61,572 nucleotides of DNA, filler included, from 12 parts of 12 records of this genome joined end to end with filler, not necessarily neighbours in it, one strand, 5' to 3'; numbered from the whole stretch's first letter, positions 4,577-61,116 are shown. Made by a program: numbers and translations. The notes: generated by a model from the letters alone, not told the origin.

Positions 4577-5011
4577 TGAGTCATCAAGCCGAGCCCAAGC
4601 ATCGAAGGTACTAGATACGGCTCTGATGACTCGGAAGGCGAGAAGGCGCGCTTAGTGACGCGAGCTGGTTAGTAGAGCTCGGTTCTAATAGAGCGCTTTA
4701 TTCTAAAGAAATCGGTAGATGGAGTGCCGCCGTCATTCTGGGTTGGGTGATAGCTTAATTAACCTACGAGTTGAGCTGTGTTAGAGCTCCATAGCCAATG
4801 CAACTTGGTTTTAAGTTGTGTTAGGGCTGTCCAGAGCCATAGCCATAGTCTACTTAATTGATCTTTAGTCTACTATGAAGTTCACACGGACGCCCGAAGC
4901 GTGCGCCACGCTCGAAGCCACGCTCCAAGCTCAACTCCTCGCAACATGGCGGTGCGCGCGGCCTGCCCGGTCTGGACGGCCGATGAGTAGCGGGCCGGCC
5001 GTGCGCTGAGC

Positions 5012-5111
5012 NNNNNNNNNNNNNNNNNNNNNNNNNNNNNNNNNNNNNNNNNNNNTTAATTAATTAANNNNNNNNNNNNNNNNNNNNNNNNNNNNNNNNN
5101 NNNNNNNNNNN
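5012..5111. other. Artificial contig linker (N-run/TTAATTAATTAA/N-run); first of 11
   Basis: Identical 100-nt all-frame-stop spacers also at 9084-9183, 15460-15559, 22365-22464, 27831-27930, 31314-31413, 35815-35914, 39990-40089, 45445-45544, 49734-49833 and 56809-56908. Confidence 0.98.
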
Positions 5112-15207: not shown

Positions 15208-15559
15208 CAAGCTTCGGGTATAGCGTTGCCGAAATCCGCTTCAGGAGAACTGTAGCTATGTAAACTAAATATTGCTTAAACAACACATGCCAACTGAGCA
15301 ATAAACTAAGCATTAGCTGACCGCTACTTTCCTACAATAATATTACAATCATCACACTGATGATCAATAATTGTACGAGTACTCGTAGAGTACTCGTACA
15401 TATACACCTACAGTTGATCATGATTGTATTCGTACGTACGATACCATGTAAAATCAATTNNNNNNNNNNNNNNNNNNNNNNNNNNNNNNNNNNNNNNNNN
15501 NNNTTAATTAATTAANNNNNNNNNNNNNNNNNNNNNNNNNNNNNNNNNNNNNNNNNNNN

Positions 15560-18500
15560 ATAAGGAAAGAATTGGTTAAGAGCAGGCCCCGAGATCGAGC
15601 AGATCGTGGCATTGCTCTTGAAGCTCCATGGCGAGCATGGCTCTGCGATCTATAGCGGGGATAAGCTGGCATGGCTGGATCCCGAGTACGTGCCAATAGT
15701 GGAGCTACCTGCAGTGGGCGAGCCGGTAAACACCGCCTGTGAATAAGGAAATGACTGTTAACAGGAGCTGCGTGACTTTGAGCCGTCGAGCCGGTCGGCA
15801 GAGGATCAGGTTAACGCCGGGTTCCTAATCGAGCAATGACCCGTTGACACAGCGCGAGGCGGCCGGGCGGCTCGAGCTGCTGCAACGGGTGTGAGGCCTG
15901 AGCGATCTCGGCTGAGAGCTCGGTGCAGGCTGCAGACCGAGGGTTGGTGCAATTGCAGCCACAGGAGCCAGGTCGGCCGGCGGTGCTGAGCATGGCGGAG
16001 CTAATCGCCAACTTGCCGGTGCCTATGCTATAATAGTGTAGGTATACTGTAGGGTAGTAGTATCTGTTTGGCGGAGCTAATCGGCTGAGCTGGTCGCGGC
16101 AGGAGATCGGAGGAGTGATGGGCGTGTTTGAGTCTGGCGACAAGTACGAGCGGTAACCGCTTCTAACTGCTTTCAACGGCTTCCAACCCGGGAGTTAGGG
16201 CCGAGCGGATATTAAAGTTGCTCAAGATGTTGCAGCTCAAGGGGATGGGCTCGGTCGAGGTGCCGGTTCAGGCCGATGCGGCAGTTAGGGTGGGCTACAG
16301 CTGGCAGAATGGCCTGATTTGTGGGACCGATGCCTGGCCGCAGCCGAGGCCGAAGACGGCGGCGCCGAGACGGTGCCTGGCCGAGCATGATCAGTTGGAA
16401 GTGAGTTGTGAGACAGGTGCCAATGGAGGTAGACGAGCGGGGAGTGCCGTTTACGCACTTAAACCTGACCAGTGTGCCCGACGGTACAGCTGAGCGCGAG
16501 ATCGAGCCTATGGAGGTTAGAGACCGGTGGCGGGGTGGTGTGCGAGCTGGGGGTTAGGTGCGATATTTCGTGGTGGACGTGAGCAAGATCCGTCTGGGGG
16601 GCGATCAGTCCAACGAGCTGGTTGTGAGCATGGAGCTCAACCCAAGCACACCAGACGATACGAGCCCGTGGGTCGCCTGGAAGCTCTCAGGCAAGCCAAC
16701 AGAGCTTGACAACCACGGGCTGAGCTCACCCGACAAGCCTAGCGTGATGGCTGCCAACGGTTACGACAAGCGCAAGTTTGAGCTCCGAAGAGCCGACCCG
16801 CAGCCGGGCCCGTGGGTGGTGGCGGTGTCGGCCGCCAAGATGGCGCGATTCAAGGCGGGCACTTGTGTGCAGCGACATGCTGATCAAGCCGGCAGGTTTG
16901 GGTAAATCACGTGAAGGAGGCCTATCTGCAGGCACACGCGCCGCCGCCGCCGGAAGCACCGCCGTCCAATCTGCTGGCAAGCGACAAGCGTAATGCAGCG
17001 TACGAACTGTTCGCTGCGGTGGACGGGGACTGCAACGGATTCTTAGGGCTCGAGGAATTTGAGAGGATTGCGTGCTGGCTGTGCGGGGCGAGCGAGGCCG
17101 AGGCCAGGGAGAGCTTTGTGGCGCTCTCGTATGATGGCGTCGAGCTCACTGTGACGCAGTTCTACCGGTAACGGTTATTGCTATTATTACCACTGTGACG
17201 CAGTTCTACCAGCTGCACCTGGGCGCATTCCCCTTATTTTATTCAGGCCTGGCCCAGGGGTTTCTGATCGCGTGGTGCAGCTGGTGCTCACAGCGCTTTG
17301 CCGAGTTGGACAGGAAGAGCTTCGAGACCAAGGTGCCTGGCTTCAGTAATCTGTGGCTGAGAGCGCCCGGTGCAGGTGCATGTGCTCACAGAGCGGCTCA
17401 AGCTGCTAGACCAAGTACCCCCCGACCGCCAACCGACCGGCGCCTCAGCGGAGCTGCCGTTCCACGCCAGCCCGGACACTGCAGCGCTGTCGAGCGCACT
17501 GTCGAGCGCTCTCAAGCTAGAGACTACGTGGATACAAGTCTCGGAGCCCAGACCGCGAGGGGCGGGAGTGACGGTAGCTGTCAGCATCCGGGATCCGGAA
17601 CAGCGCACTTCGGATGAGCTGACCAAGCTGTACGTGGATGCGCTCGCCGAGCTGCAGGCGCAGTACAAGGACCCCAGCTCGAGATTCCGGTTAGCCAACC
17701 AGCTGTTGAGCGACCAAGTTAACTCCGCAGCGCCTGTCGAGTCCTGTCTCGAGTCGCAGCCCCGGGCGTTGCCGCAGCCTGGGCGGGCCAATCTGAAGCT
17801 CGAAGGGGTGCGCGCCCTGTTCAACGGAGCGCGCTGGTGCGAGGAGGCCAGCTCGGCCAGCCTGGGCAAGATCAGCTTGGTCGGCGAACCGGTGCCGTCT
17901 CAGCTGAGCAAGGGAGTGCTGTTTGTGGAGGTGGAGGTGGCTGATCAGTGTGAACAAGTGCTGGCGAGACTGGAGCAGCTGGGCGCGGTGGGAGCGCCCG
18001 TTAATAGGGGCCTACGAAGCGATGGCGTAGCCGCCAACCTGCCACCGCTTCGTATTAGTATAACTAGTGTAGTACACTTGCGCCCCCTGTACTATATACT
18101 ACTTATACTACTGTACTGACTACACTACTGCGGTGGCAGGTTGGCGGCTACACGCTGCGCAAAATCGAAAGGGGGGAGTCCCAGCCAGCGGAAGGGTTGG
18201 CTGAGCCTGCAGCGGAGGAGTCTGTGGTCGACTTTGAGGCTGTGCCGGTGGCCAAGCCGCCGGCAGTCAAGGAACCCCAGTGGATTGACGCCACCCTGAT
18301 GGTATATGACTGATAGTAGTACAACTAGTAAAGTGAGTAGTATGGTATGCAGCCCGAGTGGGTTGACGCCGCCCTGATGGTATATGACTGCAGGTACTGC
18401 TCCCAGCCGATCGAATCGACCAGCAGAAGCTCAGCGCGGAGCTCAGCTCCGTGCTCCAGCTCGACCCGGGGCAGCTCTCGCTGATTTCCGTTGAAGGCAA

Positions 18501-21500
18501 AGCCAAGCCGATGCGACTGCCCGATGGTCGTGAGGAGCCGGTCACAGCAGTCACAGTCCGAGTCGCCAGCGGGCCGATCGGGCCATCCAGTGCAATGGAG
18601 GCCTTGCGGGCCGCCATGGAGGACGATCGCTCGGCGCTGTACACTGCTGAGCTGACACAGGCGCCCGGCAGCCGTTTCAGGTGGTGACTGTGTCCGTAGG
18701 CCAGTCGGATCCACCGATTTTTCGATCCAATCCTCAAGCCGAGCTACACCGCCTCAGCAGCCCAGGCGCTCCTAGGGCTGAGCCAGCGCCGGTGCCACCA
18801 ACCGCTTCGGTGACGGCGTAGCTGTGCGGGGCTGAGGGGGAAGTGTTCAGGTGGGCTGACGTGACGATGCGGCTCGTAATGGACTTCGAGGCAGTCAAGG
18901 CAGCGCAGCCTCGGCGGCAGTTTGAGGCTGCGGTGCACCTTCCTAATTAGGACTATAGCTTAACAGGGTATCGCGGCAGGTGCAGCAGGAGCTCGAGCAG
19001 CTGCTCGGTCCAGGGAGCATTTTCAGGGTAATAGCCATCCGGGCCGGCTCAGTGGTGGTTGTGGTGCGCGTCCTCAGGGGCAGCGTCCACGACGCACCGC
19101 CGGTGCTGGCCACCGTAGAAAAACTGCAGCAGCTGGTAACGGAAAAGCAATCTGGGCTGCACAAAACCGCGGTGCTGAGCAAGCTCGACCCGGCCAGCTC
19201 GTTGCTAGCGGTCGAGAACGGGCCGCTCGAGCCGCAACATCAGTGGGCAGAGGTCAAGTTCGCGATCCGCGGTGTGCAGCGGCAGGAGCTCAAGCCGAGC
19301 TCCGGGAGCCGTCTTGGGCTGGAAAGCACGCTGGTGGACGAGCTGTGCGAGCTATGTGGACTCGAACCTTCAAGGCTGAAAGTGGCCCAGCTGGCGGAGG
19401 GCGCGGGGCAGGCCGTGGAGGTCACAGTGCGGATTCAGATGCCGGAAAATCCGGAACGGGTCTCGGCGGTGGAGGCCGGTCGGGCGCTGCGCGAGCTGCT
19501 CGAGGCCGGGCTGGAGGGGCACGTGGGCCGGCTGCAGGGGCTGGACAGCAGCACGGAGGTGACGGTGCGTCCGGGACCGTTGCAGAGCGAGGAGGCGATG
19601 GAGCTGGCCGCGCTCTGGCGGTCGGCGGTGATGCGCGTGACGTTTCAAGTGGCGATAGCAGTCCCGGAGAGCTTCGACCAGGACGGGTTTACAGGATCGC
19701 TGGCGGTTTACTTGTCCGACGCAGTGGCCCAGCTCCCTCAAGGCACCTGCCAAGTCCAGTTTGTGCCGGCTGGTTCGATCAGGATCGAAGAGCTGGCGCG
19801 GCGCGGCGAGTTTTTCGACCTTACGGTGGATGGCTTTCTAATTTGGGAATAACCATAGCTTAGCACCTTCCTGATTAGCCAATAGTCGTGGCTTAACGGT
19901 TTACGATGCAGATTGGGATCTGCGGCCGGGACCTGACCCAGTTGGAGAAGCAGTTGAGGCGGCTGGCGGGGCTCGGATCGAGCAAGATGGTCGGCGGCGC
20001 CCGAGTGTGCAAAGTACTCCAGGTGCGCACAGCCGGGGCGGTCCAGGCGGCTGATCAGTGGCAGGTGCGCCGGACCGACGTGCCGGCGAGCACGAGTCAA
20101 GTGTTTGAGCTGCTTGACTTCGACAACGACGGGTTGGCGAGCTTCGAGGCTCTCGAGCAGGAATTTGCCGGCATAATGGAGCGGAGCGGGAAGGCGGCCG
20201 ATCTCGGGCCGCGCAAGGTGTTAAGCTATGGCTATTACCTAATTAGGAAGGTGTTAAGCTGTGGTTGGTTCGTATTTGGGAAGGCGGTCGAGCTCGGGCA
20301 GGTGGTCGCATTCATGCGAGTTTTCAAACACATCAACGCCTGGCGCGGCTCCAGTCTGGATCAGTTCACGCTGTGGCGGTGTGCCTTCCTAATTAGGAAC
20401 TATGCATAGCTTACCATCTTTCCAACTAGGAAATGGGCATAGCTTAGCAGGATGCTGCCACAGGTTTAACGGCATCTGGGAGAGGCTTGTGCTGCTCTGC
20501 CAGGACGCACCGGTCCCAAGCGACGCCGTTATCTCGCTGTTGCCCATGTTTGACACGGAGAAGAGTGTGGACGCGGACGGGGACGGTAACATCGACATGG
20601 ATGAGTGGCAGGAGGCTGGTGGCTCAAAGGAGCAGTTTGGAGTTGCTGACCTGGACGGCGACGGGGTGCTCGATCCCTATGAGATGAAGATGCGCGCGCT
20701 GGCCACTGGTGGGTTGGCCGGGCCTCAGGGATCTGGGCCGGCTCCGAGTGTGTTGATATCGCGCAGCCTGGCCGATCTGGCGCAATACAGCGAGCCCAGC
20801 ACCAGGCTTGGAGTGGCGGAGCAGATCAGGTTGTTTGGGGTGCCGGTGTGGGCTGGCTGTGACGCGATGTCGGTGAGGCTGATTCAAGAGGCCGAGGAGG
20901 CCGGGCTGGAGCTGTATTTGAGGAGGGGGCAGCTGCCGAATCACGACGAGTGGGACTACAGGCAATACTACTATTATCATTATTACTTGTATTATTATCA
21001 TTATTGAGTGAGACTGCAGGCAGCTGGAGGCCGAGCTGCAGCCCGGGGGCGGGTGCATGTACCAGTGCACCGTCAGGCCGCCGGAGCCGGGCACATGGTA
21101 TGTCGGGGTTGCTGGGATCCACATCGTGAGCTGGCGGCTGGAGCTGGAGCTGAGAGGCTGCAAACAAGCTTACCAGGCGCCTCAGCTGCTCTCGAGGTAA
21201 CTCACCGACTCTATAGCTGAACACCTTCCTAATTAGGGAACTGATATAGCTTAACGCCATCCTGACAAGATGCTGCGACAGATGGTCGTCTTACACCGCT
21301 GCTGAGCCTAGTCCTGCGTCCGGGCGGCTCAGTGCCGACAGAAGGGAACATGCGAGCGCAGTGTTTGCATTCTTGGACTACAACAACGCCGGCACTTTTG
21401 AGCCTGAGCTGCTGCATGTGCTGTGTATGCGCGCTGGCTACGATCAGCTAGGCGAGCGAACACAGGGTGGGCACTTGTGTTGTGAGGCAGGGCTGACTTG

Positions 21501-22282
21501 TGGGCAGGTGCCCCCGCGGATGCGAGCACTGGCTGCTCGCCTGTGGTGGTCAGGCTCACTGTACAGTTTAAGGCAAGTTGGCTGCTTGCACTGTAGTATA
21601 GCGTATACTATTCAGTCGGCCGCTTGCACGTGACATCTCTTGTCAGTTAACGCGCGACGACATCAAACCGGATTCGCCAGTGCGCGAGCAGTTTGTGGCA
21701 GACACAGTGCAGGGGCTGGTAGCCGCGCTGGGGTTGGAATCGGCGATGGTGACCATGGCTAGCCTGGATGCCACCGCGACCGGTACCAGCGCGGTGATGG
21801 AGATCGAGCAAAGCTACAGCCCAGCGGCTGTCAGCGTAATCGGCTGCGCGGACCGGCTGCGAGAGCAGCTGGAGGACAACGGCAGCTCACTGCACTCGGC
21901 GCGACTCTCTGTCTCCTGGGGGAAAGCTACCCAGGAGGTGCAGCCGGAGGTGTGGACGCTGAGCCCACTAAGGGCCGCAGCCAAGGAGGCTGGCGTGGAC
22001 GAGGACGGCGAGGCAAGCTGCTGGCCGAGCAGGCGGCTGACAGGCTGACGGTGGCAGGTAACGCTGCTCGTCTTCTATCGTTGGTGCCAACGGCTTTGGG
22101 GGGAGCTGTCTGTTGTGCAGTTTGGGGAGACAATGACGCAACTGGCTCGGAGCGCAAAGGTGATTGTGTGGATGGTTTAATTAATAGTATCACAGTCGCC
22201 CGATTGATGCTTGGGGCTGCAGGAGATTGGGGCTGCGATGCAACGCAGCCCAGCCGGAATCTTGAAGAAAGAACGATTATGA
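15560..22282 (+). CDS. Very large, intron-rich protein with several EF-hands and repeated SEA-like alpha/beta domains (5' partial)
   Basis: ORF pieces can be joined in frame by short introns (e.g. 16855-16895, 18000-18139, 18302-18393, 19826-19911, 20379-20463, 22013-22057), ending ILKKERL* at 22282. EF loops DGDCNGFLGLEE, DFDNDGLASFE, DADGDGNIDMDE, DLDGDGVLDPYE; SEA-like IRAGSVVV. Not all junctions are resolved. Confidence 0.65.
18933..21281. repeat. ~33-nt intronic repeat family (consensus ~CTTCCTAATTAGGNAATANCCATAGCTTAACAC) in five introns; introner-like
   Basis: Copies in introns starting at 18933 (1 unit), 19826 (2), 20218 (2, reverse orientation), 20379 (2) and 21197 (1.5). Confidence 0.85.
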
Positions 22283-22537
22283 TGTTCAAAACGTAGCAAC
22301 TTGCTTCAAATGAGCAATCATTGTTTGAGTTCTATACCGGCTTATTTGAGTGAAATAAAAGAGTNNNNNNNNNNNNNNNNNNNNNNNNNNNNNNNNNNNN
22401 NNNNNNNNTTAATTAATTAANNNNNNNNNNNNNNNNNNNNNNNNNNNNNNNNNNNNNNNNNNNNTCACACACACATGGGGTTTAGTTCTTCGGTATTTGG
22501 CATGGTTACTCGTACTAGATCGTCACAGTTGGAGCTA

Positions 22538-30455: not shown

Positions 30456-31313
30456 TCAGCATAGCTTCCTGAGCTGCTCGATCAGATCGGACGACTTGTC
30501 CTGTCCTCGCAGCCCATATTTCTTGGCGAGTGCCTGCAGCTGCTTCCTTTTGAGCGAAGGCAGGCTTGCTCCGTCGAACGGGTGCGGCTTGTTGAACATC
30601 GAAGTCTCGGTGGCCTGCCCCCCGCCGCTCAGCCGGCGCCCTCCGGCTCGCACCTCATGCCAGAAGTAAAATGTGCCTGGCTTAGATGTGCTCTCTTCAC
30701 GCGACCAGCCATTCGGAAGGTCATCTACACAACCCGTCAACACCCAGCCTCCCCGGAGCCCGCACCGTCGCCTTTGGCCACCTTGGCCGCAGGCGCGTCC
30801 GCTGCCGCCTCTTCGGTTTCCTCGCGAGGACGCTTTGCAGAGGCCGCTGCAGCTGCCGCTTCTTCAGCAGCCTTGGCAGCTGCCGCTTCTTCAGCCGCCT
30901 TGGCAGCTGCAGCCTCTTCAGCCGCCTTAGCTGCCGCCGCCTCCTCCTCGGCAGCCTTGGCCGCCGCCGCCTCCTCAGCTGCCTGAGCTGCCGCCGCCTC
31001 TTCGGCTGCCTTGGCTGCTGCTGCGGCGTCCTCAGCTGCCTTGGCCGCCGCTGCTGCCTCCTCAGCTGCTTGGGCTGCCGCTGCTTCTTCGGCCGCCTTG
31101 GCCGCCGCCGCGGCCTCTTCAGCTGCCTTGGCCGCCGCAGCCGCTTCCGCAGCGGCTTGGGCTGCGGCCGCTTCCTCGGCCGCCCTGGCAGCAGCTGCTG
31201 CTTCTTCGGCCGCCTTGGCTGCAGCTGCGGCCTCTTCAGCTGCCTTGGCTGCCGCCGCCTCTTCAGCTGCTTGGGCTGCTGCAGCCTCCTCGGCCGCCTT
31301 GGCTGCCGCCGCC
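30456..31313 (-). CDS. C-terminal part of a protein with Ala/Glu/Lys repeats, a WW domain and a SAP-like domain
   Basis: The minus frame reads (AAAAKAAEE)n, then DDLPNGWSREESTSKPGTFYFWHE (WW) and SLKRKQLQALAKKYGLRGQDKSSDLIEQL (SAP-like); two short introns. Confidence 0.7.
30835..31313 (-). repeat. Coding minisatellite, ~27-nt unit encoding AAAA(K/Q)AAEE
   Basis: More than 15 degenerate tandem units running into the contig break. Confidence 0.9.
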
Positions 31314-31413
31314 NNNNNNNNNNNNNNNNNNNNNNNNNNNNNNNNNNNNNNNNNNNNTTAATTAATTAANNNNNNNNNNNNNNNNNNNNNNNNNNNNNNN
31401 NNNNNNNNNNNNN

Positions 31414-58544: not shown

Positions 58545-58612
58545 CCCCACACTGCAGTGATGGGCCTGTCACTGGCACTCACGTCCATCTTCTGGAGGGT
58601 GGGCGTTGACAC

Positions 58613-61116
58613 ATGGAGGCTCCGGGGTCTGAGCCGGAGGCGCCGGTGTCTCAGTTCGCCCTGCTGAACGAGCTGGCCCAAGCGGAGGGCTGGGTGCTGG
58701 ACGTCAAATCCTCCCAGAACCCCAGATTCAGCGCCAAGGCCGAGTTCGGCGGCTGCGACGGCTCGGGCTGCGGGCACTCGATCAAAGAGGCCCGGCACGC
58801 GGCGGCCGAGGAGCTGCTCCACCGACTGGGGGTCCCGCGCCAACCCAAGAAGCCGGCGGCCGCCCAGCTGCAGGAGCTCACCCAGGCTCGGGCCTCGAGC
58901 TACAGGCGGCAGAAAGCGGCGTTCGGGTCCTCCCGCTGGCTGTATCAGCTCAAGTGGACCGATACCGAGTCGCCGGCGTTCGACGCGGTGGTGACCATGG
59001 CCAATAACCTGGTCGCGCACGAGCAGGGCGATAGCGTGGGGGTGGCCAAGGACAAGGCGGCGGCTTCGGTGCTGGGCAAGATGGGCATACAGGGCCTGGC
59101 GCCATGGGCCGACCAAGTGGCAGCCCTGGTGCTCGACAAGTGGGTCCAGCTGAACAGAGCGGTCGGGGTGCAGGCGCAGGAGGTGTTTGGCAACTCGGTG
59201 GTGGCCGGGTTCGTCCAGCTCGGCCCGGGCAGCTCTGAGAGCAAGGTGGTCTCGATCGGGGCCGGAACATCGCACTCGCCCGATCTGCCGACAGAGCGGC
59301 CGGCGCGCTGCCTGTTTGACTGCCACGCCGAAGTGCTCGCCCGGCGGGGGCTGCAGCGGTACTTGCACTGGCAGGTAGAGCAGGCCCATGAGCCCGAGTG
59401 CGAGAGCATCTTCAGCCGGAGGTCGGATGGGCTGGTGCTGCAGGAAGGCATAGAGTTCCACTTCTATGTGAGCAAGGTGCCGTGCGGCGACGCAGCTATC
59501 AACCCCTCGACTGAGGGCTGCACGCCTTGTAATATGCAGCCCTCGCTTGGCGGCCGTGGGCCATCTCTCCCAAGCTCAATCCATGCCCACTGGCCTCGGT
59601 TCCAGCGGTCCACACACGGCAGACTCCGGTGCAAGATGGACACAGGCGAAGCTCTTTCAGTCCTCCCTCCGAATTACGACGATGTGGACGCTACCGAGAG
59701 ATACCGCAAGATGAGCTGCAGCGACCAGATTCTGCGATGGAACATCTTGGGCCTGCAGGGTGCTGCGCTCTCTTGGCTCTTGGCCGAGCCGATCTACATG
59801 AAGAGCCTGGTGCTTGACTCGGAGCAGGTGCTCCACTCCGACCTGTGCCGGGCCGTCTGCTGCCGCGTGAGCTGCTGGCCGGCTCAGCAAGCTCTCGAGC
59901 TGCCGCGGCCGTACAGAGTGAACCACCCAGAGCTGCTCCGATCGTGCTACAGCCATCCGCACTATCGGCCGGAGTCGGCAGGCCACAGCAAACAGAGCGG
60001 GTCGGGCGCATATGCAGCAGTCTGGAGTGCGGATGCGTCGGAGCTGGAGCTGATAGCTGACGCCACCAAGGGGACTTGTCTGAGGGTGGCCGACCTTGAG
60101 GAGAGCCAGAGTGTCAAGTGAGCTAAGCCAGCCGGCTATTTAGCTGCTGAGCGTGCCGGGGCAGGTCGAGGTTGTACCAAGCGGTCGGGCACCTGCGCTC
60201 GATGCTCTCGATTCAGACCAGGTACCTGCGACCGGATGAGCCTCATGAGCCAGAGTCGCAAGACCCCCAGAGCGAACTGTACGAAACCTGTGTCACTCTG
60301 AGAGGCGTGTCAGTTTCATCCAAAGGACCCAACAGGAAAGTATCTGAGAAGAGCGCGTGCGAAAAGATGCTTCAAAGCGTGCAGTCGTTGGCTGTGAGCA
60401 GCGTGTGTCAACATTCGCTCTTTCATTCTTTCTGTAAGCTGATTGAATCCGGTGGACTTGCTACACCAACTAGTGAATTCAATTTCAGTGTTGCAGCAGC
60501 AACTGGTGACAGTCGCTACGCATCAGCAGCTCAAAGTATGCACTCTCATTTCGAAAATAGCTGGGGACAGAAATGGTTGACACTAGATGACCTGAAGAAC
60601 ACTCTGTCAAAAGCAAGTACATCAAACCCTTCGAAGGGGATATCTCCAACTGTGTCCAGTGTGATCAACTCCCTTGGTGGTGCATCACTCGACAGGACAG
60701 AGGCAAATGAGCCACTGGCAGGAGATGCGCATGATGCTCATCCATCCATGAAAGCTCTGCAAGCCGATGCGCCCGTCTTTGTGCCCGTGCGAGCTGCTGC
60801 GGCGGATGCATCTACCCCTGTGCGATCGCAAGCTGCTGTGGTGGATGCATCTACGGGCTTATACATGCGAACAGCTTCGATGGATGCAGCTATCGCCATG
60901 CAGTCAAACTTTCCCATGTACAACCCTCTCCAGCAGGCAGGGCCCCTCCTTACGCAATCAAGTGGTGCATACGACTACTACAACACCAGCAATATGCAGG
61001 CGAACAATAATTCATACATTCAACAGAACGCGAATGTTTCTTACCCACAGCCCATGCCACAACAATACAACGAGTACGACTACTACAATACCGGTACTGG
61101 CGAATGGCTGCATTAA
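58613..61116 (+). CDS. ADAR: ADAR-like dsRNA adenosine deaminase (2 N-terminal dsRBDs, deaminase with an inserted third dsRBD, PAM2 motif, Q/N/Y-rich tail), ~818 aa
   Basis: dsRBD helix-2 signatures GHSIKEARHAAAEELL and GDSVGVAKDKAAASVL. Catalytic motifs DCHAEVLARRG (59318), PCGDA (59480) and MSCSDQILRWNILGLQGA (59711). Phase-2 GT-AG intron 60118-60164 joins ORF 60172..61116. Confidence 0.88.

Follow-up and report, generated by a model that had tools for sequence, protein, structure and literature searches.

Eight units of a 33-nt repeat are spread over five short GT-AG segments of one gene, where they make up most of what appear to be five introns, and at both of the positions that a homologue allows to be compared the intron would be older than the repeat it carries. 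As the account that we favour, albeit tentatively, it is proposed that a low-copy tandem repeat was recently and locally copied, at the DNA level, into pre-existing introns of this single gene. Where introns resemble each other in sequence, their creation by a mobile element is usually considered proven; here, the content of the introns and their position appear to have different ages. The case is a small one, namely a single gene with introns predicted from DNA; if it turned out to be general, introner surveys using intron-intron similarity alone would overcount intron gains.

The window and the host gene

The window, i.e., the whole stretch of DNA analysed, is 61,572 bases long with an overall GC content of 0.594 and is composed of 12 contigs of 3.4-7.0 kb, between which stand eleven identical linkers, each made of 44 N, a 12-nt spacer with stops in all frames and again 44 N. 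The host contig, namely the fourth of the 12 (15560-22364), carries one intron-rich gene on the plus strand, for which a crude path search, based on codon usage and using no splice model, gave a span of 15591-22012 and about 17 introns. The product of this gene is a lineage-restricted protein with EF-hand motifs, the corresponding Pfam matches being confined to 20465-20956. Since five studies of marine and aquatic metagenomes have runs that contain pieces of the host contig, at low depth, the source of the window is an uncultured, GC-rich marine eukaryote. On another contig, an acid phosphatase finds its best matches in unnamed transcriptome proteins (53% identity) and in a choanoflagellate protein (42% identity).

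A repeat unit of 33 nt

In each unit, a 13-nt box, the core of which is palindromic, is followed by a spacer, a 10-nt box and, finally, 2-3 nt. In the alignment of the units, the spacer between the boxes differs in sequence from unit to unit and measures anything between 3 and 8 nt, which is why a pattern with a fixed 7-nt spacer gave 0 matches. The 10-nt palindromic core is present 4 times in the 61,572 bases, against 0.03 expected, a count reached by none of the shuffles (0/100), and all four copies lie within 18942-21237. With up to one mismatch, the second box gives 12 matches in the window against 0.99 expected, 8 of these 12 within 18955-21255 and the remaining four isolated at 4750, 33319, 40206 and 47576. 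Searching the window with a profile of the unit returned 8 units with E-values of 2.8e-9 to 1.5e-4, all within 18939-21257, the best match outside the host gene having an E-value of 2.5; six of these units are in forward orientation and two, located in 20218-20283, on the minus strand. The 13-nt box is identical in four units and the 10-nt box in three, and similarity between introns is found in all 10 of the 10 possible pairs (z of 6.5-24 versus shuffles). The unit is a real copied sequence, the two boxes being far too long and too exact for an independent origin. The string of the 13-nt box was not found in the literature and, for the core or the 10-nt box, no relevant paper was present among the matches listed.

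Inside introns 2, 3 and 4 (numbered along the gene, see below), units follow each other with a start-to-start spacing of 33, and the same unit-to-unit junction is common to introns 2, 3 and 5, from which it follows that the template was already tandem when copied. Tandem Repeats Finder reported no array of period 33 (0/10 rows), the copies being too few (about 2.5 at most) and too divergent (69-78% alike). Terminal inverted repeats were found within none of the five introns, the inverted pairs being all between intron 3 and the others; at introns 2, 4 and 5, flank repeats remained within the null, and no MITE-like target duplication of fixed length was observed. For intron 1, flank duplication was left unscored as the scoring windows overlap, and the scores obtained for introns shorter than 57 nt (16019, 16153, 16516, intron 1, 20989 and Ib) were discarded as artefacts of such overlapping windows. 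The RNA folds of introns 1 to 5 are unremarkable (z of +0.53, +1.16, -1.04, -0.85 and -0.58, respectively). Rfam gave no match over the units; two sub-threshold matches were obtained, both in exons.

Rather than the remains of copying, the boxes could be functional intronic signals, e.g., sites for splicing or transcription factors or strong branch sites, kept alike by selection or conversion, in which case their similarity would say little about the date of copying. Exact boxes standing beside spacers so variable are in line with such a constraint, as are the CTAAT and TTAAC that the boxes contain, which we read as consistent with the general branch-site pattern; likewise, the 3 SNPs and 1 indel found within introns in one metagenome all fall outside the boxes. 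The boxes are, however, absent from the dozen or so other introns of the gene, from the introns of other contigs and from the presumed introns of the homologue at the same sites. Together with the lack of any stable RNA fold (z of -1.0 to +1.2) or Rfam match over the units, and the fact that four identical copies of 13 nt still require a copying step, this makes an explanation by function alone improbable.

Five putative introns built of the unit

All five segments lie on the plus strand, start with GT and end with AG. Intron 1 (18933-18979; 47 nt, phase 0) contains one short unit at 18939-18966, with a 3-nt spacer (E-value of 2.8e-5). Intron 2 (19826-19911; 86 nt, phase 0) contains two forward units, at 19834-19866 and 19867-19899, which are more degenerate than all the others, and intron 3 (20218-20301; 84 nt, phase 0) two units in reverse complement, at 20218-20250 and 20251-20283. 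Intron 4 (20379-20463; 85 nt, phase 2) again contains two forward units, at 20385-20417 and 20418-20450, followed by a 3' tail of 13 nt in common with intron 5. Intron 5 (21197-21281; 85 nt, phase 2) is a chimera, where 16 nt unrelated to the unit come first and the shared tail last; between them, one full unit (21225-21257) is preceded by a partial one (21213-21224) and followed by another, so that the repeat starts mid-unit. For the 3' end of this intron, frame and motif gave 21281, the path search having preferred 21356. Outside the units, the introns retain just 6-8 nt on the 5' side and 12-13 nt on the 3' side. Exon 4 (20302-20378; plus strand, 77 nt), located between introns 3 and 4, is flanked by their repeats as an inverted repeat with arms of 67 nt, 76% complementary. 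The non-unit 5' part of intron 5 resembles an intron of another contig, namely intron Ib of a sulfatase gene (15/17 nt, z of 4.3); the possibility that intron Ib represents a degenerate unit was rejected, as it matches only this non-unit part and gives no match to the profile.

The profile search and the counts of core and box bear out the first-pass annotation as regards its description of the sequence, namely five GT-AG segments of one gene mostly built of units of about 33 nt, in both orientations (four segments forward and one, 20218-20301, reversed), as tandem copies in variable phase, and without clear terminal inverted repeats. Its further claim, that removal of the segments restores the frame where checked, holds in so far as 603 codons without stop are obtained once introns 1-4 are removed; for intron 3, which is open in frame, removal is not required by the frame alone.

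Several features indicate that the five segments are probably spliced out as spliceosomal-type introns. Their GC content is 0.44-0.49 versus 0.59 for the window, and about 0.62 in the exons around them; their lengths modulo 3 agree with the changes of frame between neighbouring ORFs, and the forward units have stops in all three frames. The path search recovered introns 1, 2 and 4 exactly, plus the 5' end of intron 5, and attributed a high coding score to the exons. With respect to intron 3, a variant with a 4-nt insertion after 20250 is present in one metagenome contig; such an insertion would not be tolerable in a coding segment, which argues for intron 3 being non-coding. Introns 1, 3, 4 and 5 are covered, with few changes, by independent contigs of another study, and the segments are therefore not an assembly artefact. 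In four runs of metagenome DNA contigs, which cover small shares of the stretch and leave intron 2 uncovered, no joints across introns were found. That the segments would not be introns at all, and that the contig would be misassembled or the gene a decaying pseudogene with repeat insertions, might be suspected from some odd features, namely the exact exon copies described below and the many very short predicted introns. This is nonetheless very improbable given the coverage by contigs of another study, the high coding score across the exons, the single frame that the five GT-AG segments restore over 603 codons and the homologue, in which the exons are kept open and the breaks fall at the same borders.

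Age of the intron positions

The positions of introns 2 and 3 could be compared with a homologue represented by translations of metagenome-derived ORFs, 41-51% identical to the host protein. An exhaustive profile search with exon 2 against 1.84 billion representative proteins gave three matches, all metagenome ORFs, and a word-based protein search with exon 3 plus read-through gave two, both metagenome ORFs as well. Longer homologues of exon 2 were searched for and none was found; in a protein-guided search for the locus in metagenome contigs, the patterns matched at 98 places, none of them a relative.

At the border between exon 2 and intron 2, P0121, P0124, P0125 and P0126, which are variants of one homologue (41%), stop matching within at most one codon. 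Ten codons past the end of the exon 2 match, P0126 is frameshifted relative to P0121, P0124 and P0125, as expected for non-coding sequence. A similarity of the P0121 tail to exon 3 was dropped as it was not significant (E-value of 17). On the other side of intron 2, P0127 and P0128 (48-51% identical) begin to match at the very first residue of exon 3; right after the last residues of this exon, where a Val codon fitting GT follows in both, they lose the match to the window as well as to each other. The read-through of the homologue extends over 25-58 codons without stop and contains nothing resembling the unit: the forward unit has stops in all three frames, and nothing in the read-through corresponds to the only frame in which the reverse unit is open. 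These breaks of homology at introns 2 and 3 probably correspond to introns of the homologue.

Consequently, the two testable positions out of two, namely those of introns 2 and 3, would be older than the repeat. While the host protein has diverged to 41-51% identity, four units retain an identical 13-nt box and three an identical 10-nt box, from which it follows that the repeat should be far younger than the two positions and the copying recent. In the first-pass annotation, the unit was regarded as a generator of introns. The comparison speaks against this view, as both comparable positions (2/2) are also interrupted, without the unit, in the 41-51% identical homologue; on the contrary, the two observations that this annotation had itself named as refuting it, a motif confined to the locus and ancient intron positions, were made for 8/8 units of the window and for introns 2 and 3, respectively.

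Distribution of the repeat

Within the window, all units (8/8) belong to one gene. The other 11 contigs contain 0 units, which is weak evidence since they have few introns. No exact copy of the two-box motif, searched as three variants differing slightly in their specified bases, was present in three public DNA collections (GTDB genomes, IMG/VR and JGI metagenome contigs), and no excess of depth was observed over unit-bearing bins in the four metagenome runs with pieces of the contig. In metagenome runs, a thousand-fold pile-up was seen over a simple AT-rich repeat at 20969-21005. In one metagenome contig of 175 nt, the match is limited to 45 nt of the unit region and does not continue into the flanking sequence, so that at least one copy of the unit may lie elsewhere. 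The 60-nt exon flanks of the five repeat introns are unlike each other (20 comparisons, z of at most 3.7), so that no segmental duplication is involved. Altogether, the repeat family appears to be low-copy.

These data bear on the possibility of a true introner, i.e., a small mobile element, non-autonomous and consisting of 33-nt units in tandem, that would insert in either orientation and make introns genome-wide. The window would then show one of its clusters only, and its products would be introns 1, 4 and 5 or, if insertion had occurred in parallel, all five. The introns are almost wholly made of units, and the short remainders on either side of these leave too little for an earlier intron. 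Both orientations are usable, as a branch-like CTAAT is offered by the palindromic core on either strand and a GT after AAG by the reverse unit, and known introners do make introns in both orientations (10.1101/2020.10.14.339549). More generally, introners are described as families of introns with shared sequence, some of them short, in either orientation or without TIR/TSD (PMC3879977, 10.1101/2020.10.14.339549, PMC9860276), the IE-C introners of Micromonas, for instance, averaging 67 nt (PMC3879977), and the 175-nt contig may hold a copy outside the locus. The described introners nonetheless occupy novel positions in tens to thousands of unrelated genes, according to these sources, whereas one gene of the window is concerned here. 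Introns 2 and 3 do not stand at novel positions absent from relatives; where comparable, the positions are old and common to a distant homologue without the unit (2/2). Counting further against an introner are the 0 units in the other 11 contigs, the absence of terminal inverted repeats, the flanks of introns 2, 4 and 5, where duplication does not rise above the null, and the 0 motif matches in the three public collections without any depth pile-up. As such, an introner is considered unlikely, though it deserves to be kept in mind for introns 1, 4 and 5.

Related introns within one gene

The closest described class is that of the "same gene duplications" (SGD) of introns in fungi, of which the present case is a variant. 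Half of the fungal SGDs are without duplicated exons and have been tentatively ascribed to transposition within the same transcript (Collemare et al., 2013, PMC3609843). The likeness concerns the restriction of sequence-related introns to one gene only (here, 8/8 units within the window), the flanking exons, which are unduplicated here as in that half of the fungal cases, and a free energy no lower than that of ordinary introns, in fungi as here (PMC3609843). A fold more stable than that of ordinary introns, as in fungal ILEs, is displayed by none of the five. Fungal SGDs, as there described, differ in being near-identical whole introns at new places, whereas a sub-repeat of 33 nt, variable in number, phase and orientation, is involved here and at least two of the positions seem to pre-date the repeat.

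An RNA-mediated route, by which an intron would be transposed or replaced within the same transcript, can be envisaged along these lines: an excised intron would reverse-splice into a junction of its own mRNA, and the product, once reverse-transcribed, would recombine back and replace the resident intron. Such RNA-mediated transposition of an intron within the same transcript is not known to have been directly shown. It would nonetheless fit the strict confinement to one gene, the sense orientation of 4/5 copies, the similar size of four introns (84-86 nt), the 3' tail common to introns 4 and 5 and the absence of target duplication at introns 2, 4 and 5, and it has been proposed for the fungal SGDs (PMC3609843). 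What RNA does not give, however, is an antisense intron 3 with a copy of its upstream exon end; furthermore, introns 4 and 5 do not have their units in the same phase, and the latter has kept an unrelated 5' part. On balance, this route is rather improbable.

Copies of exon ends and a possible route of copying

Besides the units, three introns of the host gene carry, just before their 3' splice site, copies of their own upstream exon end. The first is an exact copy of 20 nt within 17147-17210 (plus strand), the two copies being at 17147 and 17191, i.e., 44 nt apart and 100% identical, with an AT-rich insert of 24 nt between them; a possible 3' splice site marks the end of the downstream copy, and the pair has a flank score of 16.0 versus a null maximum of 13.5. 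The second is a copy of 38 nt within 18275-18390 (plus strand), found at 18275 and 18353, 78 nt apart, with 92% identity and a score of 30.5, where the copied stretch comprises 27 nt of exon end together with 11 nt of intron start and only 3 nt separate the copy from the 3' splice site of that intron. The third belongs to intron 3, where the 22 nt of 20188-20209 recur at 20278-20299 on the plus strand (91% identical, score of 17.0 versus the null maximum of 13.5), 60 nt of unit sequence separating the two. All three outscore every one of 182 non-cognate control pairs. Located as they are before 3' splice sites, these copies are regarded as a signature of local templated synthesis; they look like the footprints of short patches copied locally, in direct as well as inverted orientation, and a pattern of this kind does not appear to be the footprint of a transposase with fixed target duplication. 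Local templated repair in introns has long been proposed as a source of intron change and is rarely seen, and the exon-end copies would provide a concrete footprint of it.

Intron gain by tandem duplication of an exon segment containing AGGT is a proposed model. Intron 3 resembles what this model predicts, its 3' end repeating the upstream exon end, including AG/GTG with the boundary after AG. The intron is, however, neither absent from relatives nor only exon-derived: its position is common to the distant homologue and foreign units stand between the two copies, both of which indicate that duplication did not create intron 3. Insertion into an uninterrupted exon with a target duplication of 27 nt was also considered for intron 3 and rejected, because the homologue has the supposedly inserted residues as well as an intron at the same place.

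The favoured scenario, namely recent local copying into pre-existing introns, would proceed as follows. The 33-nt repeat, younger than the introns, would have been recently copied at the DNA level from a template already in tandem, and the copies would have entered, or overwritten, existing introns in both directions, over a stretch of about 2.4 kb in a single gene. The likeliest process would be microhomology-primed copying of nearby sequence, by ectopic conversion or by local templated break repair, and a repair mechanism is accordingly only presumed to lie behind the copying. Such patches might survive only where splicing can remove them, while being harmless inside existing introns. In templated repair, the sequence copied normally lies no further than about 100 bp away, and the patches attributed to TMEJ/MMBIR are usually of a few to tens of bases from this same range. 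In these pathways, patches originate from nearby sequence, either direct or inverted, with short identities at their bounds (PMC7165422, PMC8421209), to which the exon-end copies and the reversed units may be compared. The present case differs in that units of up to 66 nt are shared across 2.3 kb and have reached fixation in a natural population.

Some observations are not readily accommodated by local copying. The 84-86 nt measured by four introns would be better accounted for by the copying of a complete cassette of intron size than by random patches; conserved boxes beside spacers that are not conserved suggest a constraint on the boxes, left unexplained by pure repair; copies lie up to 2.3 kb apart versus the usual reach of about 100 bp; and positions 1, 4 and 5 could be new. 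A bolder and rather unlikely reading would see the unit as a tiny "intron cassette", functional in either orientation and spread by a break repair that also pastes exon ends, by which existing introns are rewritten. If this were true, patches bringing a usable GT, branch site and AG could seed introns, with positions 1, 4 and 5 as candidates, and the gene would display both the renewal and the birth of introns by templated repair in the act.

Further similarities between introns of the host gene concern the intron at 16153-16198, which resembles 22040-22120, and the AT-rich introns around 16019, 18040, 18302 and 20957, which resemble each other.

Intron Sequences of the EF-Hand Gene

Besides the five introns built of the 33-nt unit, i.e., the two-box repeat, other introns of the intron-rich EF-hand gene are similar to one another (z of 4.3-6.8 against shuffled sequences, for all such likenesses), namely, on the one hand, 16153-16198 with 22040-22120 and, on the other hand, 16019-16060, 18040-18139, 18302-18352 and 20957-21019 among themselves; within-gene intron likeness therefore extends beyond the 33-nt unit. 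The last of these introns (20957-21019) is AT-rich and composed of TAT- and TCA-like triplets. It draws very high depth in one metagenome run (about 1,200 in sum), made up of reads of unrelated simple repeats that are foreign to the locus.

With respect to the 33-nt unit itself, the copies in intron 3 and those in intron 4 make up an inverted repeat of 67 nt (20219-20285 versus 20383-20449; 76% complementary), which encloses exon 4 (77 nt). In other organisms, the flanking of an exon by an inverted repeat favours its circularisation or skipping.

In two places, the end of an exon recurs in the intron that follows, just 5' of the 3' splice site, first as an exact copy of 20 nt (original and copy within 17147-17210) and second as a copy of 38 nt with 92% identity (original and copy within 18275-18390). 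For the 20-nt copy, no GT-AG pair would excise just the 44 additional bases, and the best path loses three codons there.

As for the homologue, the metagenome ORFs P0123 and P0125 end and then resume near ~19150-19170, i.e., in the middle of exon 2, where the exon of the window is uninterrupted. Because the ORFs break and restart where this exon is continuous, the homologue may possess an extra intron without counterpart in the gene of the window.

Introns of the Sulfatase Gene

On the minus strand, a sulfatase gene contains two introns of ~50 nt (51282-51233 and 50692-50645), which are preceded by seven identical exon bases and whose 3' halves are alike at 25 of 30 nt. The first (51282-51233) harbours a 22-nt tandem repeat. 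Intron 5 of the EF-hand gene resembles these introns in its initial 16 nt (15 of 17).

Other Features of the Window

A plus-strand ORF (58610-60118) carries, according to Pfam, a double-stranded-RNA-binding motif (E = 2.8e-6) and an adenosine-deaminase (editase) domain (E = 6.5e-53), an ADAR-like architecture in what is apparently a protist. At 30801-31327, a long tandem array of 14 copies (66-80% alike), with alternating periods of 27 and 30 nt, is situated within a GC-rich, probably coding stretch that reaches the end of its contig. A short palindromic motif around GTACGAGTAC is repeated on four or more contigs (15373-15391, 22507, 27750, 41379, 41498 and 44884), in AT-rich stretches close to gene ends, and may constitute a shared intergenic signal. 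Adjacency among the 12 separate contigs that make up the window does not imply adjacency in the genome; the linkers, at 5012-5111 and ten other places, are all identical (44 N, a 12-nt spacer and 44 N), the spacer having stops in all frames.
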